DNA of 57,237 nt from a virus (taxonomy: Duplodnaviria > Caudoviricetes), in the IMG/VR virus record IMGVR_UViG_3300021964_000077, positions 1 to 57,237 of that record. The stretch is one strand, 5' to 3'. Of this stretch, positions 12,578 to 40,669 are shown in pieces. The translations under genes and the position numbers were made by a program. The notes beneath the pieces were generated by a model, which saw only the letters and a list, made by a program, of their open reading frames with translations, had not been told where the DNA came from and ran no database searches. How positions within the stretch are numbered: the first letter of the stretch is position 1; the number at the start of each line of letters is the position of its first letter.

Positions 12578-15500
12578 ATGGCTCAAAACATTAAACTGAA
12601 ACGCTCTGCGACTGCCGGTAAGGTACCGACTACAGCGCAATTAGATTCTGGAGAGTTAGCAATCAACACTAACGACGGTAAAGTCTACTTTAAAAGAGAC
12701 GATAATACTATCCAGACAATTCTCACTACAGATTCCGAAATTACCGGAAGTATCATTGTCAACGGCAATGTAACAGCATCTGCTTTTACCGGTACTTTAG
12801 ACGGTAATGCAGCAACAGCAACAACTGCTTCTTATGCAGTAACAGCTTCTTATGCAGCATTTGCAGCTACCCCTACAGTACAGGGAGCGCAGGGTACTAC
12901 TGGAGCTCAAGGAACACAAGGAACAACAGGTATACAAGGAACACAGGGTATTCAAGGAATCCAGGGTATTCAAGGAACACAAGGAGTCCAAGGTACTACT
13001 GGTATACAAGGTCTTACCGGTACCCAAGGTACCCAAGGAACCCAAGGAATACAGGGGACCCAAGGAATACAGGGATCAGAAGGATCAGAAGGAGGTTTAT
13101 CAATCGTATATGATGGTATTACTTTCGAAGATACAGCGTATGCTAATGTCAATCAATTAGTTCATACAGAAGCTTCTTCGTTTATATATGCTACAGGATC
13201 TACCGAAGAATGGTGGTTCTCTGATATTGCAGACGGTTTACAAGATGTAAACTACTTCAGCAACCTGTATGATAATATAGTTAACGATGGGTACGATAAG
13301 ATCTACGTTAAGATTGCTAGAAGAGGAGAACCTGAAAAATACCATCTATATGAAGGTACCAGCCCTAGCTTAGTAGCAGGGGACGACTTAAGGTTAGATA
13401 TGAAATATGCCGGAGGTAATTCTACATGGACTGGAGGTACCGGTTCAGTAGAACATATGACCTCTAAAGCCACTTCTTCTACATATAACGGTCAGATTAT
13501 CGTATCGTTTACTCCTGTAAAAGTAGGCTCACAAGGTACTCAAGGTATACAGGGTGTACAAGGTATTCAAGGTACGACTGGATCTCAAGGCACTACAGGT
13601 ATTCAAGGTGATACAGGCACACAAGGAACAACTGGAGCTCAAGGAATTCAAGGTGTTCAAGGAACAACGGGTATTCAAGGAGCCGACGGTACCCAAGGAA
13701 CAACAGGATCTCAAGGCACAACAGGGAGCCAAGGAACAACAGGATCTCAAGGAACTACTGGTACTCAAGGTACCACAGGTACTCAAGGTATCCAAGGAAC
13801 TACTGGTTCTCAAGGTACCACAGGTACTCAGGGTACTACAGGTACCCAAGGAGTACAGGGTACTACTGGTTCTCAAGGTACCACAGGTACTCAGGGTATT
13901 CAAGGAACTACCGGGATACAGGGTGACACCGGTGCCCAGGGAACACAGGGTACTCAAGGAACTCAAGGAATTACTGGTACTCAGGGAACACAAGGTATTC
14001 AAGGTATTAGCGGTGAATCAGCAGCAGTAGGCTTAACTAATAACACAAACAACTACGTCGTAACAGCTACTGGAGATGCTAACACACCTTTTAACGGAGA
14101 AGCTAACTTAGTATTTGATGGTGACTTCTTAGGGGTGGGAACTTCATCACCATTCTCAAGTATACATATTAAATCAGGATCTGACGCACAGTTCTTAATC
14201 GAAACAGATTCACCTTACGATGATGGAGAGGGGTACTCAGCTGGTATTCGATTTAAAGTAGAAGATACAGATACCTACGATCGAGCAAAAGGAGGTATTT
14301 TCTTCTTAAACACTGATGCTCAAGACTGGGGAAGAGGTGAATTGATACTAGCCACTCAAAACGGAGCTAGTAATAGTAACGTAACACCGAATGACTGGAG
14401 GTTAAAACTAACTTTAGATGGAAAGGTTCACACCAAAGGAGACCTCATTGTCAGTGGGTCAATTACAGGTAACGCTTCGTCTGCTACTAATGCAGATCAG
14501 TTAGATAATCAGCACGGTTCGTATTACTTAAATGCTTCAAACCTTAATGCAGGTACGATCAACGATGCTCGCTTACCAGGTACAATATCTTCAGATACTA
14601 CAGGCAACGCAGCAACAGCAACAGCATTAACAGCAGGTAATAAAACTATTACAGGAGACTTAACAGTTACAGGTAACGTAACTGCTCAAGAATTCCACAC
14701 CGAGTTTGTATCTGCTTCAATTGTATACCAATCAGGTTCAACAAAATTCGGTGATACATCAGACGATGTACATTCATTTACAGGTTCTTTAGAGGTAGAT
14801 GGATCTATAGTAGGAGACTTGACCGGTAATGCTGATACAGCAACCACCGCTTCCTACGCTTTATTTGCAGCTACTCCTACAGTACAGGGAGTACAGGGTA
14901 CTCAAGGTATCCAAGGTATTCAGGGTATACAAGGACTTAAAGGACTTCAAGGTACTACTGGCGCCCAAGGAACAACAGGTTCTCAAGGTACTACAGGTTC
15001 ACAAGGAACTACAGGCTCCCAAGGAACTCAAGGTACTACAGGTTCACAAGGTACCACGGGAAGTCAAGGTACTACTGGTACTCAAGGTATAACTGGATCT
15101 CAAGGAACTACGGGAAGTCAAGGTATAACTGGATCTCAAGGTATAACTGGATCTCAAGGTACTACTGGATCCCAAGGTACAACTGGTACTCAAGGAACAA
15201 CAGGGAGTCAAGGTACTACTGGTACTCAAGGTATAACTGGATCTCAAGGTACTACTGGATCCCAAGGTACAACTGGTACTCAAGGTATAACTGGATCTCA
15301 AGGAACAACAGGCTCTCAAGGTACTACTGGTACTCAAGGTATAACTGGATCTCAAGGAACTACGGGAAGTCAAGGAACAACAGGTTCACAAGGTACTCAA
15401 GGTATACAAGGTACTAATGCTACTACAAGTATTACTAACAACGTTAATAACTACGTAGTAACTGCGACAGGAGGTGCAACACCGTTTAACGGTGAATCAA

Positions 15501-16759
15501 ACTTAGTATTTGATGGATCTAAATTAGGTATTAATACCACTTCTCCAGACAATACATTACACGTACGCAACACATCAGGCGGCACTGCCTCGGGTATCTT
15601 AATTGAAACTGATGCTAACGGAATCGGTCAAGCAGGTCTATACTTTAGAGTAGAGGACAATGACGGTAACTTCTACAGAAAAGGAGCTCTTATCATGGAA
15701 AATGAAGGAGATACTTACGGTAGAGGTAAAATGCATATCACATTAGATAATAATGCCGACGCAAATAACGCCGACATCACAGACGCTGTACTTACAGCTA
15801 CCTCAGACAAACTAATTGGTATCGGTACGCAAGATCCTACTGCTAAATTAAACGTAGTAGGAGGAGCTGATGTATTGATCGTAGAAGGATCTGGTTCAAC
15901 AGCCAATACAACCATCTTTGCTATCGATGGAAATAACGGTAGATTATTTGAGATCTCCGATGATCTATCTGATTCTTTATTCTCGGTTAACACTATAGCT
16001 GGGCTACCGGTAATGGAAGCATTCTCCGATAATACAGTAGTGTTAGGAGCTTACAATCAGAATGATTTAGTAATTACAGGATCGTTAGTAGGTATTGGAA
16101 CAGCAACACCCTCTTATAAACTAGATATTAACGGTACAGGTAGATTTACTGGCAGACTTTACTTAGATACACTAGATACAAATACTTCTTCTACAGCAGC
16201 CCTTGTAATGAACGGTTCAGAGGTAGAGAAGAGAACGTTAGGATCTAATGCATTTACAAGTACAGGCTACCTACCACTAACTGGAGGTACTTTATCAGGA
16301 ACACTTACAACCAGACACGTTATCCCGAGTGCTGATAGGACTTATGATTTAGGTACTGATGCAGCAAGGTATAGAATCGTATTCTGTGAGACATTAGATT
16401 CTGCAGGTCTTCATGAAACTAATCTTGCTTCAGGAAGTGTTGCTGAATTAGCTACAGGAACAGTATTAGTTTGGCAAAACGGAGAGAACACACCATGTAC
16501 AGTAGAGGCTGATCACATGAGAATGGGTATAGCCGTGAATGGAAATGCATCTCCATTGATTCAAGGAGCAGAACCTGTACTATGTACCGGAGTAGTAAAC
16601 GAAGGGGATTACCTAATAACCTCCGCAGTAGAAGGTCACGCAAAAGGCATCTCTAGAGAGGAAATGCTACAGCGTAATTTATATGACTGTGTATTAGGAA
16701 AAGCATTGGAAGATGGTTCTGGAGAGAGCTATTTATTAAAGACGTGGATCACGATATAA
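12578..16759 (+). CDS. Long fibre protein with three collagen-like segments and a probable C-terminal intramolecular chaperone/autoproteolytic domain
   Basis: N-terminal MAQNIKLKRSATAGKVPT...GELAINTNDGKVY anchor; G-T/S-Q / G-T-T collagen blocks; repeated (V/L)GIGTxxP fibre motifs; C-terminal GVVNEGDYLITSAVEGHA...VLGKALE. Confidence 0.8.
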   Translation: MAQNIKLKRSATAGKVPTTAQLDSGELAINTNDGKVYFKRDDNTIQTILTTDSEITGSIIVNGNVTASAFTGTLDGNAATATTASYAVTASYAAFAATPTVQGAQGTTGAQGTQGTTGIQGTQGIQGIQGIQGTQGVQGTTGIQGLTGTQGTQGTQGIQGTQGIQGSEGSEGGLSIVYDGITFEDTAYANVNQLVHTEASSFIYATGSTEEWWFSDIADGLQDVNYFSNLYDNIVNDGYDKIYVKIARRGEPEKYHLYEGTSPSLVAGDDLRLDMKYAGGNSTWTGGTGSVEHMTSKATSSTYNGQIIVSFTPVKVGSQGTQGIQGVQGIQGTTGSQGTTGIQGDTGTQGTTGAQGIQGVQGTTGIQGADGTQGTTGSQGTTGSQGTTGSQGTTGTQGTTGTQGIQGTTGSQGTTGTQGTTGTQGVQGTTGSQGTTGTQGIQGTTGIQGDTGAQGTQGTQGTQGITGTQGTQGIQGISGESAAVGLTNNTNNYVVTATGDANTPFNGEANLVFDGDFLGVGTSSPFSSIHIKSGSDAQFLIETDSPYDDGEGYSAGIRFKVEDTDTYDRAKGGIFFLNTDAQDWGRGELILATQNGASNSNVTPNDWRLKLTLDGKVHTKGDLIVSGSITGNASSATNADQLDNQHGSYYLNASNLNAGTINDARLPGTISSDTTGNAATATALTAGNKTITGDLTVTGNVTAQEFHTEFVSASIVYQSGSTKFGDTSDDVHSFTGSLEVDGSIVGDLTGNADTATTASYALFAATPTVQGVQGTQGIQGIQGIQGLKGLQGTTGAQGTTGSQGTTGSQGTTGSQGTQGTTGSQGTTGSQGTTGTQGITGSQGTTGSQGITGSQGITGSQGTTGSQGTTGTQGTTGSQGTTGTQGITGSQGTTGSQGTTGTQGITGSQGTTGSQGTTGTQGITGSQGTTGSQGTTGSQGTQGIQGTNATTSITNNVNNYVVTATGGATPFNGESNLVFDGSKLGINTTSPDNTLHVRNTSGGTASGILIETDANGIGQAGLYFRVEDNDGNFYRKGALIMENEGDTYGRGKMHITLDNNADANNADITDAVLTATSDKLIGIGTQDPTAKLNVVGGADVLIVEGSGSTANTTIFAIDGNNGRLFEISDDLSDSLFSVNTIAGLPVMEAFSDNTVVLGAYNQNDLVITGSLVGIGTATPSYKLDINGTGRFTGRLYLDTLDTNTSSTAALVMNGSEVEKRTLGSNAFTSTGYLPLTGGTLSGTLTTRHVIPSADRTYDLGTDAARYRIVFCETLDSAGLHETNLASGSVAELATGTVLVWQNGENTPCTVEADHMRMGIAVNGNASPLIQGAEPVLCTGVVNEGDYLITSAVEGHAKGISREEMLQRNLYDCVLGKALEDGSGESYLLKTWITI
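13526..14008 (+). repeat. Collagen G-x-Q/G-T-T coding repeat (second block; first is 12884-13090)
   Basis: Hexapeptide GSQGTT/GTQGTT/GIQ units. Confidence 0.9.
14888..15416 (+). repeat. Collagen coding repeat with near-identical 18-bp DNA units
   Basis: Recurrent ggatctcaaggtataact / ggtactcaaggtataact / ggatcccaaggtacaact units. Confidence 0.9.
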
Positions 16760-16771
16760 TAAAGGAGTAAT

Positions 16772-17230
16772 ATGGGATTTAGAATACACAGAGGAGTCTT
16801 TCAATTTTTGGATACAGGTAACAATACCTACAAAGGTAGATACAGGTTTAACGCAACCGGTAAACTGGTGGAGGTAAACGATAGCGATGATCGTGTAGCT
16901 GATGTCAGTGATACTACTCCTTTATCCGTAAGTAAGAATGGATCAAATGTATTTGTATTAGATTTAAATTCTCGAGCAAACTTTATACTAAGTGCTGCCG
17001 GTACATGGACTTTAAGCTTAACTGTAGGATCTGAAAACGTAGGTCAAACAGGAACCATTATTATAAACAATACAGCAGCCACCACACCAGGAGCTTTGCC
17101 ATCTAATGTTAAAACTCCTAATGGAGATTCAATATCTTGGCAAACAGATAATGGAGATGTTTCTATTTTATCTTATTTAGTAGTAGACACGTCAACAGTT
17201 TTAGTTAATTATATAGGGAACTTCGGTTAA
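16772..17230 (+). CDS. Small beta-rich fibre-tip/adaptor-like protein
   Basis: LDLNSRANF..., VGQTGTIII..., DVSILSY pattern seen in fibre-end domains; sits between the collagen fibre and the giant repeat protein. Confidence 0.5.
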   Translation: MGFRIHRGVFQFLDTGNNTYKGRYRFNATGKLVEVNDSDDRVADVSDTTPLSVSKNGSNVFVLDLNSRANFILSAAGTWTLSLTVGSENVGQTGTIIINNTAATTPGALPSNVKTPNGDSISWQTDNGDVSILSYLVVDTSTVLVNYIGNFG

Positions 17231-17238
17231 AAAATACC

Positions 17239-20200
17239 ATGAAGAGCATAGGTTTCTGGGACATATACGAATGGAACACATCCGCGAACACGAGTACTAC
17301 ACGTAATACTTCCCGTAGCACGTCTAGCAGTACTACTACCGTATGGAATACTGCCAAATCAACTACAACAACTTGGAATACCTCTCAATCAACAACTACA
17401 AACTGGAATACAACAGTTAGTACAAGTAAGAGTACTACCACAACCTGGAACACATCACAGAGTACTACCACAACCTGGAACACTACTCAAAACACAACTA
17501 CTACATTTAATACCAGTAGGTTGACAAGTAAATCTACTACGACCACGTGGAATACTACACAAAGTACAATAACAACCTGGAATACCACTAAAAGTACAAC
17601 CACAACATTTAATACTTCAGTATCAACTAGTAGAAACACCACCACAACCTGGAACACTACCAGGAGTACTACTACAACCTGGAATACTAGTCAAAGTACT
17701 ACAACAACTTTTATAACAAGTCAAAACACCACCAGGAGTACCACAACAACTTGGAGTACTTCTAAAAGCACTACAACTACATTTGCTACTAGTAGAAGTA
17801 CCACTACAACATTTAACACTAATACCAGTACCACTACAACATTTAACACTACTTGGAGTACATCAAAAAGTACAACAACAACATTTAACACCACCAGGTC
17901 AACCACTACTAGCTGGAATACAACTCAGAGTACTACAACTTCGTGGACAACATATTGGAACACTACAAGATCAACAGTGACTACTTGGAACACTACAAGA
18001 TCAACGGTGACTACATTCAACACGACCGCAAGTACAACAACAACATTTAATACAACCTGGAATACTACTAGAAGTACCACTACAACGTTTAATACGACTA
18101 GATCAACTACAACTACGTTTATAACAAGTCAAAGTACGACAACAACTTTTAATACAACTTGGAACACAAGTAAAAGTACTACTACTAGTTGGAATACGAC
18201 AAAGAGTACTACAACAACCTGGACAACTAGTCAAGGTACTTCTCACAGTACTACAACTACATTCAATACTACTAGAAGTACAACAACAGTCTACAATACG
18301 ACTAAGAGTACTACCACGACATTCAACACTAATGCAAGTACGACAACTACTTGGCTATCTTATTGGAATACTACTAAGAGTACAGTTAGTAGCTGGACAA
18401 CATCTACGAATACAACTACAACGTTTAATACTACATGGTCCACTTCTAGAAGCACAACTACTACTTGGACAACGAATACTACAGTAAGTACTACTAGAGC
18501 AACTACTACTAGTTGGAATACTACTAGAAGTACTACAACAACATTCAATACCTCTAAAAGTACAACAACAGTCTACCTAACTTCGAAGTCAACAGCGACT
18601 ACTTATGTAAGTTACTGGAATACTACTAGAAGTACAACAACAACATTCAATACTACAAGAAGTACGACAACGACTTGGGTAACAAACACTACAGCAAACA
18701 CTACTAGAAATACAACCACTAGTTGGAATACCACTAAAAGTACAACCACAACCTGGAACACATCACAGAGTACTACCACAACCTGGGTAACAACGTGGGA
18801 CACAACAACAGTTTACATAAGTTACTGGAACACAAGCCGTAATACGACTACATCGTTCAATACTACTTGGAATACTAGCTGGAATACGACAACCACCTGG
18901 GTAACAAACACTACAGTAAGTACATCACGAGCTACTACTACGACTTGGAATACCACTCAAAGCACAGTTACTACCTGGGCTACTTCTCGAACTACAACCA
19001 CAACTTGGACTTCGTATTGGAACACCTCTAGAGCAACTACAACTACGTTTAACACTACTAGGAACACCTCTACAACGTGGACTACATACTATAACACTAC
19101 CAGGAGTACTACAACAACATACAACACTGCCCAGAATACAACAACAACATGGGTTTCGTATTGGAATACTGGTAGGAGCACAACAACAACATTTAACACC
19201 ACAGTATCAACAAGTAGGTCAACTACTACTACATTTAGTACATCTATAGGAACAACTACTACGTGGTACACTAACTTAGGTCTCAATACAAGTAAGAATA
19301 CGACAACAACTTGGAATACTACAAGATCTACATCAACAAGTAGATCTACATCTAAGTCAACTGTCACAACGTGGATTACCTATAAAAATACAACTACTAC
19401 ATTTAATACAACCTGGAGTACTAGTAAGAGTACTACAACAACTTGGGTAACAACCTGGTCAACAACCTATACTGTCTCTACAGCAAACGCAACGACTACC
19501 TCATGGACAACGTATTTCAACACAACTAAAAGTACTACAACGACTTTTGGAACTACATGGAATACTACAAGATCTACATCTACTTCTAGAAGTACAACAA
19601 CAACATTTAACACTACATTTAACACTACTAAGTCAACCGTGACCACCTGGACAACAGGAGTATCAGACCCAGGATGTGATTGTTTCCAATTCTTTGTAGA
19701 TGCTTCTCCTTCAGGGACAGTAGAGTATTTTGATTGTGGCTCAGGAACAACAGTAACCGCAGATGTTCCTCGTGGGGGACTAATGATCTGTGCCTGCCCA
19801 AACTATGAAATTATTGGTCCTGAAGTAATTGAGGGTCCTCTGGAACCTTGTGGATCCATCCCACCGTCCGATACTACCTTTAATACTACCAGGAGTACAA
19901 CAACAACATATAACACTTCTAGAAGTACTAGCAAGAGTACAACAACAACGTTTAATACTACAACAACCTGGAATACTACTAGGAACACCACTAAAAGTAC
20001 TACCACAACCTTCCAAACATCAGCTTCTACACAGATAGAGACTACTACAACATGGAATAGTTACTGGAATGTGAACACAACCAGGGAAACATCTCAAAGT
20101 ACGACTACAGTATACAATACAACTGTTAGTACAAGTAGATCTACGAACACTGGCTTCAACACTACTCGAAACACCACTACTACATTTAATACGTCCTGGA

Positions 20201-22290
20201 ATACTACTACAACGTGGAACACATCACAAAGTACAACAACAACGTATATTAGTTCATGGAACACTACCAGGAGTACTACAACCGCATGGAACACCTCTAA
20301 AGCAACAACTACAACATTTAATACTACATGGTCCACTTCTAAAAGCACAAGTACTATTTGGACAACGAATACAACTGCAAGTACTATTAGATCAACTACA
20401 ACTACCTGGAACACTACAAAAAGTACAACAACAACCTGGGAGACAAGTATAAACACCGGTAGGAGTACTACTACAACCTGGGCGACTACCCAGAGTACAA
20501 CTACAACTTGGGTAACTAATACAACTGCAACTACTTCTAGAAGCACAACAACTACCTGGAACACTACAAGAAGTACAACAACTACCTGGAACACTACAAG
20601 AAGTACAACCACCACCTGGACTTCATACTGGAATACTACTAGAAGTACAACAGAAAATAGGAATACTACGAGAGGTACAGGTAGATCAACCACCACCACC
20701 TGGATAACTAACACAACAGGAAGTACTCAGAAAATTACAAGTACAACTAGAAGTACTAATAGAAATACAACAACTACCTGGAACACTTCAAAAAGTACAA
20801 CAACTACATTTGTTACTTCAAAGACTACAGCTACAACATGGATTTCATATTGGAACACTACAAAAAGTACAACAACAACATTTAATACTACTAGAAGTAC
20901 CACTACAACGTTTTCAACTTCAGCGGTAACAAGTACTGTACGTAATACTACGACGACTTGGAACACTTCTCATGCAACTACAACTACATGGAACACTTCA
21001 AAAAGTACAACGACTACCTGGATTACTAGTCAGAGTACAACTACAACATGGACTTCATACTGGAATACTAGTAGGAGTACTACTACAAGCTGGAACACTT
21101 CACAGAGCACTTCACGTTCAACGGTAACTTCCTATATAGTAAATACTTCAACAACAACAACGTGGGTAACTAGCGGAGTAGCTAATACTACTAAGAGTAC
21201 AACAACAACCTGGAACACCAGTAAAAGTACGACGACGACTTGGAACACTTCTCATGCAACTACAACTACATGGAACACTACTAAGTCAACTACAACTTCC
21301 TATACCACGTATTGGAACACTTCAAAAAGCACAACAACTACTTGGATTACCAGTCAAAGTACTACTACAACGTTTAACACAACAGTTAGCACCAGCAGAG
21401 CTACAACAACAAATTGGAATACCAGTAAAAGTACTACTACAACATTTGCAACTACTAAGAGTACTACTACAACTTTTGCTACAACAGTAAGTACTAGTAG
21501 AGCTACTACAACTACGTGGAACACTACTAAGAATACAACAACTACTTGGAACACTACACAAAATACGACTACTACATGGACTACTAGTCAAGGTACTACT
21601 AGGAGCACCACTACCACATGGAGTACTAGTCAAAGTACAACTACTACATTTAATACGAGTCAATCTACTACAACAACGTTTAATACGACTATTAGTACAG
21701 ATAGATCTACTACCACAACTTGGGCTACAAGTAAATCAACAACTACCACGTTTAACACAACGAAATCAACGACTACTACATTTAATACGAATGCAAGTAC
21801 AACAACTACCTGGAGCACATCCTGGAACACTACTAGAGCTACAACAACTACCTGGAGCACTACTAGAGCTACAACAACTACCTGGAGCACTAACACAAGC
21901 ACCACAACTACATTTAATACAACATGGTCTACCAGTAAATTAACTACGACTACGTTTAACACTACGTACAGTACAGTAACAACCTGGAACACTACCCAGA
22001 GTACTACTACATCCTTTACAACAACCTTTAATACAACTAAGGTAACGGTTACAACCTGGAACACTACTAGAAGTACCGCCACGTACTGGAATACTACCCA
22101 GAGTACTACTACAACATTTAATACCACTTGGGTTACTTCAAGATCAACTACTACAAGTTGGAACACTACCAGAAGTACAACAACAACATTCCAGACTCAG
22201 ACAATCACCCTTACAACCTGGACTACTAGCTGGGTTACTTCTTGGAGCACAGGAACAACATGGTACACAGACTTTTACTATACTCCGTAA
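17239..22290 (+). CDS. Giant Thr/Ser/Asn/Trp repeat protein (1683 aa): two ~805-aa repeat arms around a 72-aa Cys-rich loop; predicted self-complementary beta-hairpin filament
   Basis: Uninterrupted 5 kb ORF with diversified codons. 10-aa unit (W/F/Y)NTT(K/R/Q)STTTT; central non-repeat segment 19657-19872 with six Cys. The ORF is well supported; the structure is inferred. Confidence 0.85.
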   Translation: MKSIGFWDIYEWNTSANTSTTRNTSRSTSSSTTTVWNTAKSTTTTWNTSQSTTTNWNTTVSTSKSTTTTWNTSQSTTTTWNTTQNTTTTFNTSRLTSKSTTTTWNTTQSTITTWNTTKSTTTTFNTSVSTSRNTTTTWNTTRSTTTTWNTSQSTTTTFITSQNTTRSTTTTWSTSKSTTTTFATSRSTTTTFNTNTSTTTTFNTTWSTSKSTTTTFNTTRSTTTSWNTTQSTTTSWTTYWNTTRSTVTTWNTTRSTVTTFNTTASTTTTFNTTWNTTRSTTTTFNTTRSTTTTFITSQSTTTTFNTTWNTSKSTTTSWNTTKSTTTTWTTSQGTSHSTTTTFNTTRSTTTVYNTTKSTTTTFNTNASTTTTWLSYWNTTKSTVSSWTTSTNTTTTFNTTWSTSRSTTTTWTTNTTVSTTRATTTSWNTTRSTTTTFNTSKSTTTVYLTSKSTATTYVSYWNTTRSTTTTFNTTRSTTTTWVTNTTANTTRNTTTSWNTTKSTTTTWNTSQSTTTTWVTTWDTTTVYISYWNTSRNTTTSFNTTWNTSWNTTTTWVTNTTVSTSRATTTTWNTTQSTVTTWATSRTTTTTWTSYWNTSRATTTTFNTTRNTSTTWTTYYNTTRSTTTTYNTAQNTTTTWVSYWNTGRSTTTTFNTTVSTSRSTTTTFSTSIGTTTTWYTNLGLNTSKNTTTTWNTTRSTSTSRSTSKSTVTTWITYKNTTTTFNTTWSTSKSTTTTWVTTWSTTYTVSTANATTTSWTTYFNTTKSTTTTFGTTWNTTRSTSTSRSTTTTFNTTFNTTKSTVTTWTTGVSDPGCDCFQFFVDASPSGTVEYFDCGSGTTVTADVPRGGLMICACPNYEIIGPEVIEGPLEPCGSIPPSDTTFNTTRSTTTTYNTSRSTSKSTTTTFNTTTTWNTTRNTTKSTTTTFQTSASTQIETTTTWNSYWNVNTTRETSQSTTTVYNTTVSTSRSTNTGFNTTRNTTTTFNTSWNTTTTWNTSQSTTTTYISSWNTTRSTTTAWNTSKATTTTFNTTWSTSKSTSTIWTTNTTASTIRSTTTTWNTTKSTTTTWETSINTGRSTTTTWATTQSTTTTWVTNTTATTSRSTTTTWNTTRSTTTTWNTTRSTTTTWTSYWNTTRSTTENRNTTRGTGRSTTTTWITNTTGSTQKITSTTRSTNRNTTTTWNTSKSTTTTFVTSKTTATTWISYWNTTKSTTTTFNTTRSTTTTFSTSAVTSTVRNTTTTWNTSHATTTTWNTSKSTTTTWITSQSTTTTWTSYWNTSRSTTTSWNTSQSTSRSTVTSYIVNTSTTTTWVTSGVANTTKSTTTTWNTSKSTTTTWNTSHATTTTWNTTKSTTTSYTTYWNTSKSTTTTWITSQSTTTTFNTTVSTSRATTTNWNTSKSTTTTFATTKSTTTTFATTVSTSRATTTTWNTTKNTTTTWNTTQNTTTTWTTSQGTTRSTTTTWSTSQSTTTTFNTSQSTTTTFNTTISTDRSTTTTWATSKSTTTTFNTTKSTTTTFNTNASTTTTWSTSWNTTRATTTTWSTTRATTTTWSTNTSTTTTFNTTWSTSKLTTTTFNTTYSTVTTWNTTQSTTTSFTTTFNTTKVTVTTWNTTRSTATYWNTTQSTTTTFNTTWVTSRSTTTSWNTTRSTTTTFQTQTITLTTWTTSWVTSWSTGTTWYTDFYYTP

Positions 22291-22304
22291 AAAAAAGCAT
22301 AAGT

Positions 22305-22335
22305 AGTTGTCTATTCAAAAAATTTATCGTAAATT
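22305..22335 (+). promoter_or_regulatory. RGTTG-N16-TTCRTATATT-type promoter (Bacteroidota-like -33/-7) ahead of the sugar cassette
   Basis: AGTTG-N16-ATCGTAAATT here; identically spaced copies at 30816, 32371, 44901, 46764, 49592 and 56950. Confidence 0.65.
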
Positions 22336-22367
22336 ACAGTTATTAACTTTATAGTATAAGTAGGTAT

Positions 22368-23264
22368 ATGGAGATGTTCAACAAGAACGTGGCTAAAGAA
22401 CGCATTGGTCACTTAAAGAAAAGTAAAGCGTTAGATCCTCTAAGAGACGTAGAGAGGTATTTCTTAAAACAAATCAGGAAGTACAATATTGAGACAAGCT
22501 ATGATGTTCTTGCTCAAGAAATTCCGTACTTTAAAACAATGGCATACACAGAATTTGCTACATGTTTTATGATGCATCCTCTTAACCTAGATTTAAGGTT
22601 AACTCAAATAATGGAAGCAGCACAAGACGATGACTCTGAAGAAAAAGATTTTGTAAGTTATTTCCGTTCAAATATCGAAGGTAAGTTAGCAAATAAATAT
22701 CAAGATAGAGCAACAGATTTTAACGATTTTCACGAAGTAGACAACATTGTAGTACTTCCAGGATCTAATAAATTAAAATCAAACACCTGCTTGAATAAGT
22801 TACATTACATTAAAAAGACTCATGATGATAATGTATATTTTAAACCTCACCCAATCACAACACACCAGGTCATTGGAGAACTGAAAGATATGTTCGGCGA
22901 AGATTCAATTCTACCACGCGATATCGATATGTACCATTTCTTACAACAAGCTGATAAAGTTTACGGTACACACATTACAGAGTCTACAATTTATGCTGCA
23001 TCTCTAGGGAAGGAAATTGAACCAGTTGATGTATATAATGGAATCGAACGAGGATCATTCTATCATGTTAATAAATTCTTATTTGAGAATAGAGATAATC
23101 CTCAACCGTGGATTAATAAGACTCTATCTAGCCATAAATCGGGTATTATCTGTCCTCAAATAGAAGAAGATTGGAGAGAGAAGTTAGACGCTTACCTAGA
23201 GTACATGTACGAAAAAAGAGAGACGTACAAGAATTGGTTTATTGAAGGTAAAAAGAAGAAATAA
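22368..23264 (+). CDS. Putative CMP-sugar-dependent glycosyltransferase (KpsS/KpsC capsule-biosynthesis-like, possible Kdo transferase)
   Basis: VYFKPHP (HP motif of CMP-Kdo/CMP-sialic acid transferases), then FLQQADKVY...TESTIYAASLGK (GT-B C-terminal pattern); same operon as kdsB and kdsA. Confidence 0.55.
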   Translation: MEMFNKNVAKERIGHLKKSKALDPLRDVERYFLKQIRKYNIETSYDVLAQEIPYFKTMAYTEFATCFMMHPLNLDLRLTQIMEAAQDDDSEEKDFVSYFRSNIEGKLANKYQDRATDFNDFHEVDNIVVLPGSNKLKSNTCLNKLHYIKKTHDDNVYFKPHPITTHQVIGELKDMFGEDSILPRDIDMYHFLQQADKVYGTHITESTIYAASLGKEIEPVDVYNGIERGSFYHVNKFLFENRDNPQPWINKTLSSHKSGIICPQIEEDWREKLDAYLEYMYEKRETYKNWFIEGKKKK

Positions 23265-23267
23265 GTT

Positions 23268-23615
23268 ATGCATATACAAGGAAAAGTCTGGGGACAAACA
23301 CAAGCAATCTTCCAGAAACCTAATTTTGAAATCCACCGCATTGAGATCAAAAAAGGCGGATTTTGTTCTACTCATAAACATAATAATAAGTTTAACGCTT
23401 TTTACATGGAGAGTGGAAGCCTTAAGATTTTTATTGAGCAACAGGACTACGATTTAATAGATGAGACAGTAATCACTACCGGAGAACTATCGATAGTAAA
23501 ACCAGGATTGTACCATTCATTTGAAGCATTAACAGACTGTGTTTGTTATGAAATTTATTGGACTGAACTAAACCATAATGATATCGAACGTCGTACCGTC
23601 GGCGGTTCTAAGTAA
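23268..23615 (+). CDS. Cupin-fold protein (sugar isomerase-like)
   Basis: KVWG, CSTHKH and VKPGLYHSF cupin metal-binding motifs. Confidence 0.75.
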   Translation: MHIQGKVWGQTQAIFQKPNFEIHRIEIKKGGFCSTHKHNNKFNAFYMESGSLKIFIEQQDYDLIDETVITTGELSIVKPGLYHSFEALTDCVCYEIYWTELNHNDIERRTVGGSK

Positions 23616-24145
23616 TGTATACAAAAGGCAGTACTCACGATTACTTTATTGAGCAATACAAGCAGCTTCATGAAGGAGGGTATACTCAAGGTTACCGCAT
23701 AAGTCCCACTTACGGAACTAGAGATACGTTGAAAGTTCTTTTAGAAAAGTACAACTGTAAATCTTTGTTTGATTTTGGATGTGCTTCAGCAGCACACTGG
23801 ATTGAGACAGACCTACAGGAATACCTGGGAATAGGAGAACTATACTTATACGATCCAGCTATTGAAAAGTACAACACCTATCCAGCTGAACAATTTGACG
23901 CATCCTTTTGTATAGATGTAATGGAACATATACCTGAAGACAGTATAGATTATATTGTGAATAGGGTTTTAGATAGAACAAAAAAACTAGCAATCTTTAG
24001 AATTGCAATATGTGAAGCATCCACTTTACTACCGGATGGTCAAAATGCTCACGTTACTGTGCAGAACTCACAGTGGTGGAGAGAGCGTATTGCTCAACAT
24101 AAGAGAGATGGTATCGCAATTGAAGTTAATAGAGTAATAGTATAA
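23615..24145 (+). CDS. Class I SAM-dependent methyltransferase
   Basis: SLFDFGC (motif I), YDPA, FD...CIDVMEHIP, NAHVTV...WW. Confidence 0.8.
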   Translation: MYTKGSTHDYFIEQYKQLHEGGYTQGYRISPTYGTRDTLKVLLEKYNCKSLFDFGCASAAHWIETDLQEYLGIGELYLYDPAIEKYNTYPAEQFDASFCIDVMEHIPEDSIDYIVNRVLDRTKKLAIFRIAICEASTLLPDGQNAHVTVQNSQWWRERIAQHKRDGIAIEVNRVIV

Positions 24146-24712
24146 ATGGAAATAGTAGAATTAGAACACTCATCACCTTCTTTTATTTTAGCAGGAGTTA
24201 TTAATCACGATCTATGTGATGAAATCATAGCAGAGATAGATAGTAATTCTGAAAAAGCTAGGTACGACAAAGTAAGAGGTTACCATAGGTTAACCGATAA
24301 GGAAGTTAATCAGGATTTAATGAAAAAGTATTTACGGGAACTTAATCGAGTTTTCGAAAAATACAAAAAAGAGTTTCCCTGGGTTGAAGATCGCGGATCA
24401 AACTGGGGTGTTATGTCTCCTTTTAATTTACAGAGGTACGACCCAGGAGACTGTTACCGACCTGTACACATTGAACAAGGCGGTCCCAGAGAAGGTAAGT
24501 TAATTAGGAACTTAGCTTTTGTTACGTATCTTAATGATATTGAAGACGGTGGTGAAACAGAATTCCCTCAACAGAATATGATGATAAAACCTCAAAAAGG
24601 GTTAACAACGATATTCCCAGCAGGATGGACTCACCCTCACCGAGGCTACCCCGCAGTAAGTGAAGATAAGTACATTGTAACAGGTTGGGCTAGTTATTTC
24701 CATCGTTGCTAA
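24146..24712 (+). CDS. 2OG-Fe(II) oxygenase (prolyl-4-hydroxylase-like superfamily)
   Basis: LQRY, HIE, YLNDIEDGGETEF, FPAGWTHPHRG, KYIVTGW. Confidence 0.9.
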   Translation: MEIVELEHSSPSFILAGVINHDLCDEIIAEIDSNSEKARYDKVRGYHRLTDKEVNQDLMKKYLRELNRVFEKYKKEFPWVEDRGSNWGVMSPFNLQRYDPGDCYRPVHIEQGGPREGKLIRNLAFVTYLNDIEDGGETEFPQQNMMIKPQKGLTTIFPAGWTHPHRGYPAVSEDKYIVTGWASYFHRC

Positions 24713-25413
24713 TGAAAGTAGTTGCGTTAATCCCTGCACGTTTACGTTCTACTAGATTACCGCGAAAACTTATTCAAAGCATTGGCGGTAAGAGTATCAT
24801 ACAGAGAACTTACGAAGCGGTAGAATCTACAGGTTTATTTGATTTAGTATTTGTAGTTACTGGAGATGAAGAGATTATAAAGAAGACTCAAGCTCCTGTC
24901 ATTAAGAGTACTACACATTACCTTTCCGGCAGTGATAGGATCGCCGCAGCAATCAAGAGTATATCTTGTGATGCCGTTATCAACGTTCAAGGTGATGAGC
25001 CATTTATTGATAGCACTTTGTTAGAAAGGCTTAGAGATGCGATAATTACAACTAAAGCGGATGTAGTATCTGCAGCTTTTCCTATTGAGAATGTTGATGA
25101 AATCAATAATCCAAATAACGTAAAGGTTTATTTTAATGAAGAAGGATTAGCTGAAAATTTCTCTAGAACCCCAATGACTGCTTCTAAGCATTATCAGCAT
25201 ATCGGTGTATACGCTTTTAAGAGATCAGCATTAGAGAGGTTTGGTAAACTAGAACCCAGTATGAGGGAAAAACAAGAGAAATTAGAAAACCTAAGATTCT
25301 TGGAAAACGGGATGAAAGTTCGTATATTGTTAACAAATGAACCAAGTATCGGAATCGATACTCAAGAAGACTTAGATAAAGCAAGAAAGTTATGGAGCTC
25401 TATGAACAGTTAA
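24712..25413 (+). CDS. kdsB: 3-deoxy-manno-octulosonate cytidylyltransferase (CMP-Kdo synthetase)
   Basis: IPARLRSTRLPRK, SGSDRI, INVQGDEP, NPNNVKV, FSR, HIGVYAF, EKLENLRFLENG, GIDTQEDL. Confidence 0.93.
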   Translation: MKVVALIPARLRSTRLPRKLIQSIGGKSIIQRTYEAVESTGLFDLVFVVTGDEEIIKKTQAPVIKSTTHYLSGSDRIAAAIKSISCDAVINVQGDEPFIDSTLLERLRDAIITTKADVVSAAFPIENVDEINNPNNVKVYFNEEGLAENFSRTPMTASKHYQHIGVYAFKRSALERFGKLEPSMREKQEKLENLRFLENGMKVRILLTNEPSIGIDTQEDLDKARKLWSSMNS

Positions 25414-26198
25414 CATCTCAAGATCGACTATTTTTAATCGCAGGACCTTGTGCTGTAGAAGATGAGAAGATGCCTCTACAAATAGCCAGGGATATTTCTG
25501 AGATTACTAAAAAGTTAAATATACCTTATGTTTTCAAAGCAAGTTATAAGAAAGCTAACCGCTCTCGATTAGACTCGTTTACAGGCATTGGAGATAAAAA
25601 AGCATTAAAAGCAATACATAAGGTAAAATCAGAATTAGGTATACCTGTAATTACAGATGTACACAGTGTAGATGAAGTTAAATTAGCAGCTAAATATGTA
25701 GATGTACTACAGATACCAGCTTTCTTAGCTCGGCAAACAGAGTTACTAATAGCAGCTGGTGAAACAGGTAAAATTGTTTCTATTAAGAAGGGACAGTTTA
25801 TGTCTCCTGAATCTATGCAATTTGCTGTTGAGAAAGTTAGATCTACAGGAAACCATAGAGTACTTATCACTGAACGAGGGACGATGTTTGGGTACGGAGA
25901 TCTAGTAGTTGATTACAGAGGTATTCCAATTATGCAGCAATATGCTCCAACAGTACTGGACATTACACATTCTCTTCAGCAACCTAACAACTCTTCAGGA
26001 GTAACCGGTGGACTTCCTCAATTAATCGAAACTATTGCTAAAGCCGGTATTGCAGTTGGAGTAGACGGTATCTTCTTAGAGACTCACCCTGACCCATCGA
26101 GAGCACTATCAGATGGTGCTAATATGTTACCGTTAGGAGAATTAGAAGACTTATTAACAAAGTTAGTTAAGCTTTATAACTTATCTAATATGTTATAA
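25392..26198 (+). CDS. kdsA: Kdo-8-phosphate synthase
   Basis: LIAGPCAVE, FKASYKKANRS, TDVH, QIPAFLARQT, KKGQF, TERGTMFGY, DITHSLQQP, FLETHPDP, SDG. Confidence 0.96.
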   Translation: MELYEQLTSQDRLFLIAGPCAVEDEKMPLQIARDISEITKKLNIPYVFKASYKKANRSRLDSFTGIGDKKALKAIHKVKSELGIPVITDVHSVDEVKLAAKYVDVLQIPAFLARQTELLIAAGETGKIVSIKKGQFMSPESMQFAVEKVRSTGNHRVLITERGTMFGYGDLVVDYRGIPIMQQYAPTVLDITHSLQQPNNSSGVTGGLPQLIETIAKAGIAVGVDGIFLETHPDPSRALSDGANMLPLGELEDLLTKLVKLYNLSNML

Positions 26199-27503: not shown

Positions 27504-27616
27504 TACTAATAGAAGATTTACAGAATAATCTATATATCGTTATGCAAGACGGTATAGATGTTGCATTATTTAACAGCAGAGAAGAAGCACAAAACTTTAT
27601 AGATAATGCCAACTAG
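27500..27616 (+). CDS. Small hypothetical protein (38 aa, not in the ORF track)
   Basis: MILIEDLQNNLYIVMQDGIDVALFNSREEAQNFIDNAN; ATGA overlap with the upstream stop; fills the gap. Confidence 0.5.
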   Translation: MILIEDLQNNLYIVMQDGIDVALFNSREEAQNFIDNAN

Positions 27617-28868
27617 TGTAGGACCAAATACAAAAGGAGAAGAGAATCTAGTCTTTGGCTATGATTTATCGGATAACTATAACTCGTATATAGGAGAACC
27701 TGCTACGAATTCTCAAGCTTATAGCCATTCTGCTATGACTCAAGCAGGGTTTGATGCCTGGGGATGTTACGATGGTAATAACAGCTCCCCTGCTTACCAC
27801 TCCTGGGGTAACGCACAATCTAAAACTCTAGTCAGTATAACAGGTCCTAACGGTAAATATGTTAACGCAATGTTATACCATAATTTTACTGGAGGCTTTC
27901 ACGGACCTACAAACTGGAGTGGAGTAGCTGCTTCTTTGTTAACTAATGGTAGTAAGATAACTGTGCAAGGATGGGTAAAAGCAGCAGACGCAGCAAGTGT
28001 TGGAAAAACAGTAACACCGTATTTGTATTATAGTAAAGTTGGAGGAGGGTCTTATAGCACCGGTACTGGTTATACACTAACAGCAAACTGGCAGCTAGTC
28101 TCACATTCCTACACGGTACCTGAAGGCTCTACAGGAACAGGTACAATGTACTTTTTTACAAGCGGTGGTACAGATATTAAAATGTATTTAACAAATACAG
28201 CGATTGTAGGAGGAAAGCTCCATGCTGTACAATGGCTTCCAGGAGGAACAACAAGATCAGCCACCCAAGGCTTACTAGATCTCACAGGCAATTCAACAAT
28301 CGATCTATCAAACGTATCATTTGACAGTAATGCACAAATGACTTTTGATGGTACGAGTGACTATGCAACAATTCCACATAACACAGTAATGCGAGATACA
28401 GAAACACTTGCCATAGAGACTGTATTTCAAGTATACTCCCAGTTTGGATATTATGGAGGAATTATAGGAAAAGGTACAAGTGATACAGATGAAGAATATT
28501 TCTTAGGAATACAACCTAGCGGTAATAGGATTTATTTTGATGTAGGTATAGGAAGCGGACCTTACGTAAATGCTGTACAAACTATCAACTCTAATCAATA
28601 CTACCATGTAGTAGCAATGCATCAGAGAATAGGAAGTACATCAGTATGCTCTATTTACGTTAACGGAGAATTTGCATCTAACACAACATCAGGCGCAACA
28701 AATAGTGTCAATACTAATACAACTGATATCACAGTAGGAGCTAGGTGGAGTAATGGAAGTAGCTCTTTCAACGGAGCTATACCTCTATTGAAGATGTATA
28801 ACAGAATACTATCAGCCGAAGAGATCAAATCAAACTTTAACGCCATCAAAGGCAGATTCGGGATTTAA
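27606..28868 (+). CDS. LamG/concanavalin A-like lectin protein with an inserted carbohydrate-binding-like domain
   Basis: FDGTSDY, YYHVV, IYVNG and FNGAI..LKMYNRILSAEEIKSNFNA LamG signature. Confidence 0.8.
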   Translation: MPTSVGPNTKGEENLVFGYDLSDNYNSYIGEPATNSQAYSHSAMTQAGFDAWGCYDGNNSSPAYHSWGNAQSKTLVSITGPNGKYVNAMLYHNFTGGFHGPTNWSGVAASLLTNGSKITVQGWVKAADAASVGKTVTPYLYYSKVGGGSYSTGTGYTLTANWQLVSHSYTVPEGSTGTGTMYFFTSGGTDIKMYLTNTAIVGGKLHAVQWLPGGTTRSATQGLLDLTGNSTIDLSNVSFDSNAQMTFDGTSDYATIPHNTVMRDTETLAIETVFQVYSQFGYYGGIIGKGTSDTDEEYFLGIQPSGNRIYFDVGIGSGPYVNAVQTINSNQYYHVVAMHQRIGSTSVCSIYVNGEFASNTTSGATNSVNTNTTDITVGARWSNGSSSFNGAIPLLKMYNRILSAEEIKSNFNAIKGRFGI

Positions 28869-28879
28869 CATTTATAGTT

Positions 28880-29623
28880 ATGTCATTACACCATAATCCT
28901 AGAATAACCACAAACGGGCTTATAACTGCCTTAGATGCTGCAGATCCAAATTCATACCCAGGATCCGGAACTACATGGTACGATATGTCAGGTAATGGCA
29001 ATCACGGCTATATCTCAAGCGGAGAGTTTGTAGCTGGGGACAAATACCTAAGGAATTTAAACAATACCTCAAATTTCTTCACTGTAACTGTAAATCATTC
29101 TTCTGTAATTAACGATGCTTTTACTACAATTACCGGTGGATGGACAATAGAAGAAGTTATCTGGACTAACTCAACCACATACCCAGAAGCAGACGGAGGC
29201 TCAGTAGTAAGTAGTAACGCATATAGTTCTGGTCAAACTGGTTTTGACTGGAATCACGGACAAGGATCTTTATCTAGCTTTCAGTTTGGTATGAGCAGTA
29301 ACTCAGGCGGTTCTTATGAAGATCGTGTTTACATTTCTACCGGTAACTATAATTCATTAAATACCTGGAGAGTAAGAACAATGATATGGGATAGAGGAGC
29401 AGACCAGGTAAAGCTCCATATGAATGGAGAGTACATGGGAGCACAGAGTATACCCAATACATCTGGAACTTCTATCTATGATGGAGGTGGAATACTTTTT
29501 GGAAGCCTGTACGGATGGAAGCATTACGGAAGACGTGCAAGTATAAAAATATACAACAGAGTATTAACAGCCAAAGAGGTCAAATCAAACTTTAACGCCA
29601 TCAAAGGCAGATTTAATATTTAG
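28880..29623 (+). CDS. LamG/concanavalin A-like lectin protein
   Basis: GLITALDAADPNSYPGSGTTWYDMSGNGNHG start; KIYNRVLTAKEVKSNFNA end. Confidence 0.8.
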   Translation: MSLHHNPRITTNGLITALDAADPNSYPGSGTTWYDMSGNGNHGYISSGEFVAGDKYLRNLNNTSNFFTVTVNHSSVINDAFTTITGGWTIEEVIWTNSTTYPEADGGSVVSSNAYSSGQTGFDWNHGQGSLSSFQFGMSSNSGGSYEDRVYISTGNYNSLNTWRVRTMIWDRGADQVKLHMNGEYMGAQSIPNTSGTSIYDGGGILFGSLYGWKHYGRRASIKIYNRVLTAKEVKSNFNAIKGRFNI

Positions 29624-29629
29624 TAAGTT

Positions 29630-30814
29630 ATGGCAGTAAGACACGGATACGGAAAGATAGCAGGTGCTGATGCATTAGTATTTGCATACGATACTGGAGA
29701 TACTAGAAATAGTTATAGGGGTGAGCCTACTGAGAATCTAGTATACACTAACTCAAATGTTTATACATTAGGTGCGTCTACTTTTCCTATTGATCCACCA
29801 GTCAAAGAAGTTTTCAACGGCAGTACTCAAGCTAATTTAAGTTGGACAGATCACTTAAGATGGTATAACGAAACAATTCCTTCTGGAACTACAATTACTA
29901 TTTCCGGGTGGTACATGGTCTACCATATAAATCCTACTACAGCATGGCAAAGTAGCGCTAGATTAATTATATATTCTTCTGCAGGATATGGAGGTACAGT
30001 ATGTAATCCTGGAGCTTGGAATACTTGGAAATATTTTGAAGTAACTTATACTGTACCCTCTGACACAACTAGTTTTAGACTAGAAGATGCTGGGTATGAC
30101 TATTATAATGACGCAGATAAAACCAATACAACAGCTTATGGATGTAATTATCAGCTTGAACTAAAGTCTCACGCTACTCAATTTGTAAACGGAACAAGAT
30201 CAGCCACAGAAGGATTAAAAGATTTGACAGGAAATACTTCTGTTGATTTATCTAACGTATCATTTGATTCTGATGCAATAATGACTTTCGACGGTACAGA
30301 TGATTATATGAGCATTGCATCCTCTAATACTATTACAGATTACTCACAACCTTTTACAATGGAAACCATCTTTAAGGTAGACACAAATGCTACCTGGGAT
30401 AACGGGTACAGAAGTAATATATTTAGTATAGCAGGCTCGTATGGAGGAATGTACGGTTTATTTAAGTACAACAACACAGATGTGGGTATTCAGTTGAGAG
30501 ATGGAGATAGCACAACCTACGCAGTAGCTACAAACCTATCCAAAGGAGGATATTACCATTTAGTAGGAACTAGTAACGGATTAGGTACAGTCTCTTTATA
30601 TTTAAATGGAGTATTAACACAAGACAACGTAGGAACATTAACAGGCGCTCCTGACTCTCAAGGCCTATTCATAGGAGGATCTAGGGCGTTTGGTGGAGCT
30701 TACGGTAATCACTATCAAGGAGAAATACCAGTAGCTAAATATTACAACAGAGCACTCACAGCCGCAGAAGTGAAAAACAATTTTAACAATTATAAATCAA
30801 GATTTAACTTATAA
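29630..30814 (+). CDS. LamG/concanavalin A-like lectin protein, paralogue of 27606-28868
   Basis: TRSATEGLKDLTGN...SNVSFDS...FDGTDDY; YYNRALTAAEVKNNFN. Confidence 0.8.
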   Translation: MAVRHGYGKIAGADALVFAYDTGDTRNSYRGEPTENLVYTNSNVYTLGASTFPIDPPVKEVFNGSTQANLSWTDHLRWYNETIPSGTTITISGWYMVYHINPTTAWQSSARLIIYSSAGYGGTVCNPGAWNTWKYFEVTYTVPSDTTSFRLEDAGYDYYNDADKTNTTAYGCNYQLELKSHATQFVNGTRSATEGLKDLTGNTSVDLSNVSFDSDAIMTFDGTDDYMSIASSNTITDYSQPFTMETIFKVDTNATWDNGYRSNIFSIAGSYGGMYGLFKYNNTDVGIQLRDGDSTTYAVATNLSKGGYYHLVGTSNGLGTVSLYLNGVLTQDNVGTLTGAPDSQGLFIGGSRAFGGAYGNHYQGEIPVAKYYNRALTAAEVKNNFNNYKSRFNL

Positions 30815-40373: not shown

Positions 40374-40669
40374 GCAGGTACGGGTCAATAGAACGTAGAG
40401 TAGTTGAAGGTAAAATTGTAAAAGAGACCTCAATCTATCCAGAAGTTGCCACTTCGGAAGAAGATTACTATATTATAACTTCTATGGGGGACAGGTATGA
40501 TATATTGTCAAAGCAGTTTTACGGAACTTCAGACTACTGGTGGGTTATTGCATCTAGTAATCCTCATGCTAAAAGGGATACTCTTTTTTTAGAACCAGGT
40601 ATACAGTTAAGGATTCCACCTTACAGACAAGTCACTAAGCAATATGAAGATTTAAATGAATCTCGATGA
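40370..40669 (+). CDS. LysM/gp53-like baseplate protein
   Basis: GDRYDILSKQFYGTSDYWWVIASSN...PGIQLRIP. Confidence 0.8.
   Translation: MSRYGSIERRVVEGKIVKETSIYPEVATSEEDYYIITSMGDRYDILSKQFYGTSDYWWVIASSNPHAKRDTLFLEPGIQLRIPPYRQVTKQYEDLNESR

Follow-up and report, generated by a model that had tools for sequence, protein, structure and literature searches.

We examined a 57,237-nt stretch of viral DNA (Duplodnaviria; Caudoviricetes; IMG/VR record IMGVR_UViG_3300021964_000077, positions 1 to 57,237; hereafter the window), a 57-kb fragment that represents ~35% of the genome of an uncultured virus. It encodes a threonine-rich protein of 1683 residues (P0001), at the centre of which lies a 72-aa segment holding six cysteines. 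Our slightly favoured reading is that this segment forms a knob closing the loop of a fold-back, beta-zipper type of fibre. By the sequence, the chain very probably runs outward for ~806 residues, turns within residues 807-882 and runs back, and from end to end the two arms pair antiparallel in a single register. One face of this zipper has W or F opposite R, K or Q, and Thr, Ser and Asn fill the other positions. The knob itself would be a small all-beta domain on four invariant cysteines, with a conserved first half and a hypervariable, acidic second half. It would fix the register, nucleate the folding of two low-complexity arms, and show a fast-diversifying surface at the end far from the virion, in contact with a host or environmental ligand.

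The first-pass annotation, made from the letters of the window, had singled out this segment as acidic, rich in proline and glycine, placed at the midpoint and in sole possession of the cysteines, between arms that are basic and cysteine-free. The protein agreed with that description in every respect. The sequence quoted for 19657-19872 is that of residues 807-878, and all six cysteines of the protein (813, 815, 833, 851, 853 and 871) fall within it and none in the arms; the cysteine content is 8.3% in the segment, against 0% in the arms and 0.54% across 34 other open reading frames (ORFs) of the window. The segment carries 11 D/E vs 1 K/R, and the arms carry 51 and 52 K/R vs 3 and 6 D/E (together 103 vs 9). 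It also holds 9 of the 10 prolines and 10 of the 24 glycines of the protein. The arms are 806 and 805 aa long and the midpoint of the protein is residue 842. The segment is, in effect, the only internal one without repeats: stretches of at least 12 aa poor in T, S and N were limited to residues 1-14, 520-531 (borderline) and 805-880. Searches of Pfam and PHROG with the 1683-aa protein returned 0 families.

Both arms are built from a decapeptide, NTT[RKQ]STTTT[WF], and from variants of 4, 6, 14 and 16 residues. Because these unit lengths are always even, a strict two-residue phase is kept along each arm. W or F occupies even positions of the N arm in 79 of 80 cases and R or K in 51 of 51, with N at odd positions in 74 of 75; the C arm has the opposite phase, with W/F (76 of 76) and R/K (52 of 52) at odd positions and N (66 of 66) at even ones. 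The DNA repeats of the gene are only 66-97% alike, indicating that the periodicity is maintained at the protein level. ORFs found on the opposite strand within 16500-23500 are by-products of the repeat. A 34-residue super-repeat (10 + 10 + 14) runs through the outer ~350 residues of both arms (17239-18290 and 21230-22290); farther in, the repeat period lengthens to 64-84 residues, with the lowest regularity in the innermost ~150.

The reversed N arm was aligned with the C arm under a scoring scheme in which W = F and R = K = Q, so that covariation between W/F and their partners was not built in. The gapped alignment scored 264, against 11 in the parallel orientation and 86.5 +/- 10.8 (maximum 113) in 20 controls with shuffled C-arm units. 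It comprised ten blocks totalling 791 pairs, in which i+j took no value other than 1687, 1689 and 1691, and in the same alignment 129 pairs joined an aromatic residue to R, K, Q or H and 3 joined two aromatics. Pairing is ungapped between residues 8-379 and 1312-1683, residue 8 being flush with the last residue, 1683. The innermost pair of the hairpin joins 806 with 883, and the unpaired loop consequently spans 807-882 (to base 19884), four residues past the end first proposed for the segment. When 251 ungapped sums were tested, i+j = 1691 gave the most aromatic-basic pairs (84). A model with W opposite W was dropped, since sums near 1685-1687 were not top and were confounded by the 34-residue period.

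Cross-arm partners covary. W faces R in 42 pairs, K in 10 and Q in 22, and F faces R in 19, K in 25 and Q in 2 (chi2 26.7, p 1.6e-6, n = 120), F thus preferring K and W preferring R or Q. Within an arm, aromatic residues had no association with a basic residue 6 before or 4 after (p 0.53 and 0.39, respectively). Covariation up to 1600 positions apart, with none between near neighbours, is as a physical cross-strand contact predicts. The local higher-order repeat period likewise forms a mirror image about the centre of the protein: the period spectra of the window protein gave a mirror correlation of 0.70 vs a direct one of 0.28, and 0 of 2000 permutations reached the mirror value. Three further mirror/direct values were 0.945/0.829, 0.886/0.821 and 0.951/0.811, again with the mirror value reached in 0 of 2000 permutations. 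Overall, the sequence lends strong support to a hairpin model in which the chain would run out and then back. The earlier proposal that the segment forms the turn of such a chain draws support from the register, from the covariation between arms and from the mirrored order of the repeats, and the knob very probably sits at the hairpin turn. Two other architectures were considered for the arms. A disordered, mucin-like reading was rejected on the two-residue phase held over 800 residues per arm and on the cross-arm covariation, and a beta-solenoid with 10-residue rungs is unlikely, as the phase is preserved through units of 4, 6, 14 and 16 residues, which follow one another in mirror order in the two arms.

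Relatives were located through a degenerate DNA pattern for the repeat together with the conserved downstream gene (alignment A2). The latter has 290 relatives in viral contigs, 80 of which were taken along with 10 metagenome loci. Common to all is a gene order of a protein ending in ..VNYIGNF, then one or more Thr-rich genes, then a protein of ~300 aa starting with MEMFN. Centrality of the cysteine domain, on which the first-pass annotation had staked its proposal, was found in all 4 complete single-chain proteins that carry one. In L014 (1701 aa) 808 of 808 pairs fall at a main sum of 1711, in L141 (1579 aa) 720 of 750 at 1589 and in L062 (860 aa) 382 of 393 at 862, and half of each sum lies at most 2 residues from the centre of the protein's own tip. 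Antiparallel scores were 231, 311 and 147, respectively, vs parallel scores of 9, 19 and 16 and shuffled means of 73, 142 and 23. Pairing preferences were again apparent in the relatives, for Y with H and for W with Q (p 9e-19 and 2e-25).

Many other phages encode the arms as a pair of neighbouring genes. Among 32 distinct two-gene pairs the repeat-residue counts of the partners (range 341-1246) correlate with an r of 0.99, their mean difference is 3.6% vs 38% with partners permuted (0 of 10,000), and an antiparallel layout of repeat periods beats a parallel one in 31 of 32 (mean 0.70 vs 0.20), although the two-gene loci are related to each other and these counts overstate their independence. 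Inside each subgroup of these relatives, arm lengths change in step. The sole exception, L133, has unequal arms (533 vs 653 repeat residues) without a mirror signal; the tail of its gene 1 reads like an out-of-frame repeat, making a frameshift or assembly error likely. A whole-protein search gave 6 weak matches, two of which were inspected, among them P0004 (1312 aa), which has a large N-terminal globular part with a sub-threshold baseplate-wedge match. Its Thr-rich region self-aligns antiparallel at one sum over 210 pairs, a count made without a shuffle control, and the zipper shaft may occur there fused to a baseplate protein.

The tip yielded little to direct searching. tblastn gave 0 matches in 50,697 phage records, none of the 157 candidates from a word-indexed search scored, scans of viral contigs with the tip and with alignment A3 returned 7 and 41 pattern matches of which none was confirmed, and the best Atlas score, 0.89, lay under the trusted level. 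The lone HMMER match among 1.84 billion representatives, the 913-aa repeat protein P0002, aligned piecewise in 8 stretches with 29% identity and was judged spurious. In these searches the knob has no detectable homologue outside its clade. Five homologous tips (L014, L062, L141, L142 and L143) were found by position only, within the relatives located via the repeat motif and the neighbouring gene; that of L014 is identical in L026, L040, L063-65 and L144. In the alignment of the six sequences (A4) 4 cysteines are invariant, as are the Asp that precedes Cys 2 and the Gly that follows Cys 4. Identity of the relatives' tips to that of the window is 19-26%, and BLASTP of the window tip against the L014 tip reaches an E of only 0.009. 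All six are 70-74 aa long and acidic (10-14 D/E vs 1-6 K/R).

Over 15 pairs, the tips average 30% identity vs 80% for the downstream gene, and between L141 and L142 the values are 46% and 93%. On the question, raised at the first pass, of whether related phages carry different loops, the tip is far from invariant. Conservation is concentrated in the cysteines and the first two strands, with strand columns more conserved than loop columns. Of the profile search and structure prediction proposed earlier, the former returned no Pfam or PHROG family for the tip and the latter a moderately confident all-beta mini-domain: AlphaFold2 run on A4 gave five strands with a predicted local distance difference test score (pLDDT) of 72.4 and a predicted template modelling score of 0.57. 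Without an alignment, the prediction for residues 743-942 was uninformative (pLDDT 37.9). No second copy of the variable region, as expected of a diversity-generating retroelement template, was found in the 57-kb window, the record covering ~35% of a genome. By these alignments the knob is a new, clade-restricted, fast-evolving four-Cys domain (six-Cys in the window) at the turn.

Contigs of 4 public runs, which do not include two runs flagged as possible sources, were also compared with 19300-20300; the runs that hold most of this stretch carry estuary or marine metagenome labels. The arms draw many partial matches from other repeats, which makes depth and joints there meaningless, and only clean tip pieces were read. 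X3 contigs are identical to the entire stretch, and a contig of X4, an independent run (19584-19839, depth 3.84), differs from the window at 4 bases, 1 synonymous and located in the arm and 3 altering Ser823 and Ser825, which belong to the tip's first loop. We take these tip changes as a weak hint at tip variation that may be error.

The wider relatives carry other modules at the place of the tip. In some two-gene forms arm 1 ends, by motif reading, in a Hint/intein-like domain (L004, L016, L024) that stays below the Pfam threshold (17.5-21.4 bits vs a cut-off of 35.8). Such ends, with a Cys start block and an ..HN end block, were seen in L004/L070/L072, L018/L073, L016/L071, L024 and L114; the residue after the domain is K, F or R, not C/S/T, and in most of them a short Cys-rich tail comes next, which suggests self-cleavage over splicing. 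Further two-gene forms end arm 1 in a Gly run and CxRGC (L031, L013/L116, L023, L045, L077, L086, L099, L101, L112, L124 and L131). These have a gene of ~345-366 aa between the arms, with a methyltransferase domain and a weak intein-splicing-like C-terminal region, and their arm 2 starts with MPNTT.. and overlaps the end of the intervening gene. In one two-gene subgroup arm 1 ends in a Peptidase_S74 chaperone (L127 gene 1: 24.8 bits, cut-off 22). The window protein has no Peptidase_S74 match in Pfam, and its tip has no Hint/intein Cys block, HN block or Pfam match.

Globular inserts of 145-180 aa with no Pfam match are present in arm 1 of L077, L096, L103, L106 and L115, and similar ones in arm 2 of L082, L084, L086 and L099. 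They break the repeats 60-90 residues from the tip end, and the arms are equal again once they are removed. The extra inserts mostly lie toward the C-terminal end of arm 1 or the N-terminal end of arm 2 (exceptions L037 and L134), which, if the arms are antiparallel, is one physical end. With the modules above, this makes the tip end a hot spot for module exchange. As regards the suggestion that the knob is a swappable host-range module, these relatives uphold a variable site, at which a part in host range or binding is a possibility. The modules at this end are often self-cutting or folding aids, which leaves room for a purely structural role of the knob. The S74 and Hint modules plausibly take part in nucleating assembly from the tip end, and the S74 trimerisation chaperone of the sister subgroup is the one indirect hint at a homotrimer, which would give six strands.

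As to which end is distal, the conserved termini and the adaptor gene suggest that the tip end is quite likely far from the virion. The N-terminal motif is common to the arm 1 starts of single-chain and two-gene relatives; regardless of tip type, this motif, the flush pairing of residue 8 with residue 1683 and the ..VNYIGNF protein encoded upstream are all retained, the tip being the most variable part, and in L016 the ..VNYIGNF motif forms the C-terminus of a collagen-like fibre. In characterised fibres the S74 domain lies at the distal C-terminus. The reverse arrangement, with the knob as the virion-proximal attachment and the paired N and C termini as the free distal end, would suit the variable globular domain that L023 and L045 bear at the C-terminus of arm 2, that is, at the open end. 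We regard it as improbable in view of that conservation across tip types, of the S74 chaperone at the tip end of arm 1 in one subgroup, and of P0004, where the hairpin-like region follows the N-terminal globular part with its sub-threshold baseplate-wedge match.

The chemistry of the cysteines, for which disulfides or metal binding had both been suggested, also allows two readings. In the window tip they are spaced CxC-17-C-17-CxC-17-C, and the relatives' tips have single cysteines 16-22 residues apart. The extra cysteines of the window are each offset by two residues, one ahead of Cys 1 and the other behind Cys 3, with 813+853 = 815+851 = 1666, and from these equal sums the two strands are inferred to be antiparallel neighbours. 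The bridges would most likely be C815-C851, C833-C871 and the window-specific C813-C853, giving a CxC...CxC ladder. Disulfide ladders of this type are known from beta-hairpin peptides such as protegrin. That the knob is disulfide-bonded is, on the spacing of its cysteines, fairly likely. A Cys4 zinc ribbon or knuckle was discarded, as it requires two CxxC-type pairs and this spacing offers none. More generally, the invariant cysteines might coordinate Zn, or Fe as the T4 gp37 needle does, perhaps along an oligomer axis, in place of forming disulfides; there are four of them, the window tip has two CxC motifs, and the closest structural analogue, the gp37 needle, is metal-stapled according to its description in PMC9659904. 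Such binding seems to us a slim prospect, because the tip has neither a CxxC pair nor a His, its cysteines, 17-21 residues apart, all fall in separate predicted strands or loops, and the extra ones at i-2 and j+2 of Cys 1 and Cys 3 have the geometry of a cross-strand disulfide ladder.

A function is harder to assign. Ligand or receptor binding by the knob is a possibility that we rate, from the sequence pattern, somewhat short of probable. More tentatively, the knob might be the hypervariable ligand-binding head of a stalk-and-knob display device, carried on an 800-residue zipper with a pairing code. W/F opposite R/K/Q and Y opposite H would then write the register of the stalk, and a disulfide-laddered 72-aa knob, evolving several-fold faster than its neighbours a quarter micrometre from the virion, would set which cells or polymers the phage touches first. 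The length of the fibre would be ~0.25 micrometre if the strands are fully extended at ~0.33 nm per residue. Several observations weigh against a binding knob of this kind, or against the model of its fold. The single-chain relatives L021 and L047 have only a turn of 12-23 aa with no Cys, so the knob is not required for a fibre, and the Hint-like, S74 or GGG-CxRGC tails at the tip end of two-gene relatives point to folding or processing, not binding. L023 and L045 bear their globular C-terminal domain at the open end of arm 2, and three ConA-like (concanavalin A-like) lectin-domain proteins (27606-30814) are other candidate receptor binders in the window. Fast divergence of the tip could reflect weak constraint, and the X4 contig difference, at a depth of 3.84, is a possible error. 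The AlphaFold2 model of the tip is built on six sequences only; fold matches were weak (Foldseek against PDB, best E 0.74; VIA, best Z 3.1; BFVD, best E 0.048, to uncharacterised phage proteins), and the tip belonged to no sequence family in Pfam, PHROG or the homologue searches.

Taken to their end, some of these points would make the knob a structural clasp only, serving folding and register and perhaps locking an oligomer, with no ligand role and with divergence that reflects weak constraint. This accords with relatives that have a short turn only, with two-gene relatives whose corresponding end holds self-processing or chaperone modules, with conserved columns made up of the cysteines and the first two strands, and with lectin-domain proteins elsewhere in the window that could be the receptor binders. 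We nevertheless consider it doubtful: the six tips keep their length of 70-74 aa, their acidity and their scaffold while other residues change, even where two phages share 89-93% identity in the downstream (anchor) gene, a pattern usual for exposed binding surfaces, and a plain clasp could be much smaller, as in L047.

Among described structures the closest is the needle and head of T4 gp37, six-stranded and antiparallel as summarised in PMC9659904. Both are fibres of T4-like myoviruses in which the chain runs, or is predicted to run, out and back as antiparallel beta strands with strict two-residue alternation and a small domain at the far end of the turn. In contrast to gp37, the window protein has no sequence or profile relation to it (Pfam, PHROG) and lacks HxH metal sites, its 3 His (336, 1245 and 1339) lying outside the tip; its arms are ~800 residues long, not tens, and would be held by aromatic-to-basic/amide pairing, not iron; and its tip has cysteines and no fold match was found for it. 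The likeness to the bovine ultralong heavy-chain complementarity-determining region 3 (CDR-H3), drawn at the first pass, is fair as an analogy and does not extend to membership. There, too, a two-stranded antiparallel beta ribbon carries a Cys-rich hypervariable mini-domain at its turn, and a Cys scaffold is kept while loops vary, as with the 4 invariant cysteines in 6 of 6 tips here. Origin and context are unrelated, however; the CDR-H3 stalk is ~40 times shorter, diversification in the window family takes place between phage lineages and is not somatic, and the disulfides of the window are predicted only. Finally, the S74 and Hint/intein domains of two-gene relatives, lying at the tip end of arm 1, share the topological position of the knob, but the knob matches neither family, is internal to one chain and gives no sign of cleavage.

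Full-text literature searching returned no paper describing such a fibre. If our reading is correct, the design is without counterpart in the literature searched: a single-chain hairpin with arms of ~800 residues, the register of which can be read from sequence much as that of an RNA stem, capped by a small Cys-scaffolded knob. The knob would then be the obvious site of first contact of abundant estuarine and marine T4-like phages with hosts or polymers. As a compact, naturally hypervariable domain on a rigid stalk it would be of interest for protein design and display, and the equal-arm and pairing rules are open to direct, cheap tests.

The fibre belongs to a T4-like myovirus, as the window encodes a T4-type (gp23-type) major capsid protein (Pfam Gp23, E 2.7e-82). 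It shares 66% identity with the capsid protein of Flavobacterium phage immuto, and a comparable giant gene is absent from the corresponding region of the immuto phage. The window also contains a contractile tail sheath gene and two collagen-like fibre genes, and no RNA families were found within 16500-23500. Features of the fibre gene and of its surroundings are collected in the table below.

Table. Coordinates of the fibre gene, its parts and neighbouring features in the window.
Feature	Position	Strand	Basis or remarks
Thr-rich protein gene, predicted fold-back fibre, 1683 aa (P0001)	17239..22290	+	ORF and translation; same slot of a conserved gene order in >30 related loci
Conserved N-terminal motif, residues 1-14, M..IGF..I.EW.T type, open end of predicted hairpin	17239..17280	+	recurs at arm 1 start
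N arm, residues 1-806	17239..19656	+	decapeptide units; unit list and phase
Six-Cys acidic tip domain, residues 807-878	19657..19872	+	composition, alignment, AlphaFold2
C813-D-C815; C815 is invariant Cys 1, C813 window-specific	19675..19683	+	A4
C833, invariant Cys 2, after invariant Asp (Y-x-D-C)	19735..19737	+	A4
Most variable tip part, residues 834-870 except C851/A852	19738..19848	+	per-column conservation in A4
C851-A-C853; C851 is invariant Cys 3, C853 window-specific	19789..19797	+	A4, positions
C871-G872, invariant Cys 4 and invariant Gly	19849..19854	+	A4
C arm, residues 879-1683, predicted mirror partner of N arm	19873..22287	+	phase and antiparallel alignment
Upstream protein, 152 aa, ending ..LVNYIGNFG, candidate adaptor	16772..17230	+	motif upstream of arm 1 in related loci
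Downstream partner, ~300 aa, starting MEMFNK	22368..23264	+	identity of 50-80% across 12 loci
Two collagen triple-helix repeat proteins, 586 and 1393 aa	3953-5713, 12578-16759	+	
2-oxoglutarate (2OG)-Fe(II) oxygenase	24146-24712		prolyl-hydroxylase-like Pfam family
Three neighbouring paralogous proteins	27606-30814	+	two with ConA-like lectin domain (Laminin_G_3), one also weak CBM_4_9
Protein of 1280 aa with C-terminal Peptidase_M15 domain, possibly a tail lysin or similar	40666-44508	+	

In every related locus examined, the gene immediately preceding arm 1 terminates in the ..VNYIGNF motif, which is sometimes the C-terminus of a collagen-like fibre, and the 152-aa protein of the window is a candidate for joining the fibre to the virion or to a collagen-like fibre. 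Downstream of the fibre gene, the product of 22368-23264 had no Pfam or PDB sequence match, including a PDB search with the anchor-gene profile. It falls in an Atlas look-alike cluster in which 14% of members have Capsule_synth (score 0.94), and 1 of 12 relatives of the gene has a marginal polysialyltransferase match (E 0.019); we regard it as a candidate cytidine monophosphate (CMP)-sugar transferase of the 3-deoxy-D-manno-octulosonate (Kdo)/sialic type. The adjoining region, 23268-26198, encodes a cupin, a methyltransferase, the 2OG-Fe(II) oxygenase, a CTP_transf_3 protein (CMP-sugar synthetase type) and a DAHP_synth_1 protein (Kdo-8-P synthase type). Together, the downstream gene and these sugar-type enzymes suggest that the fibre may be sugar-modified.

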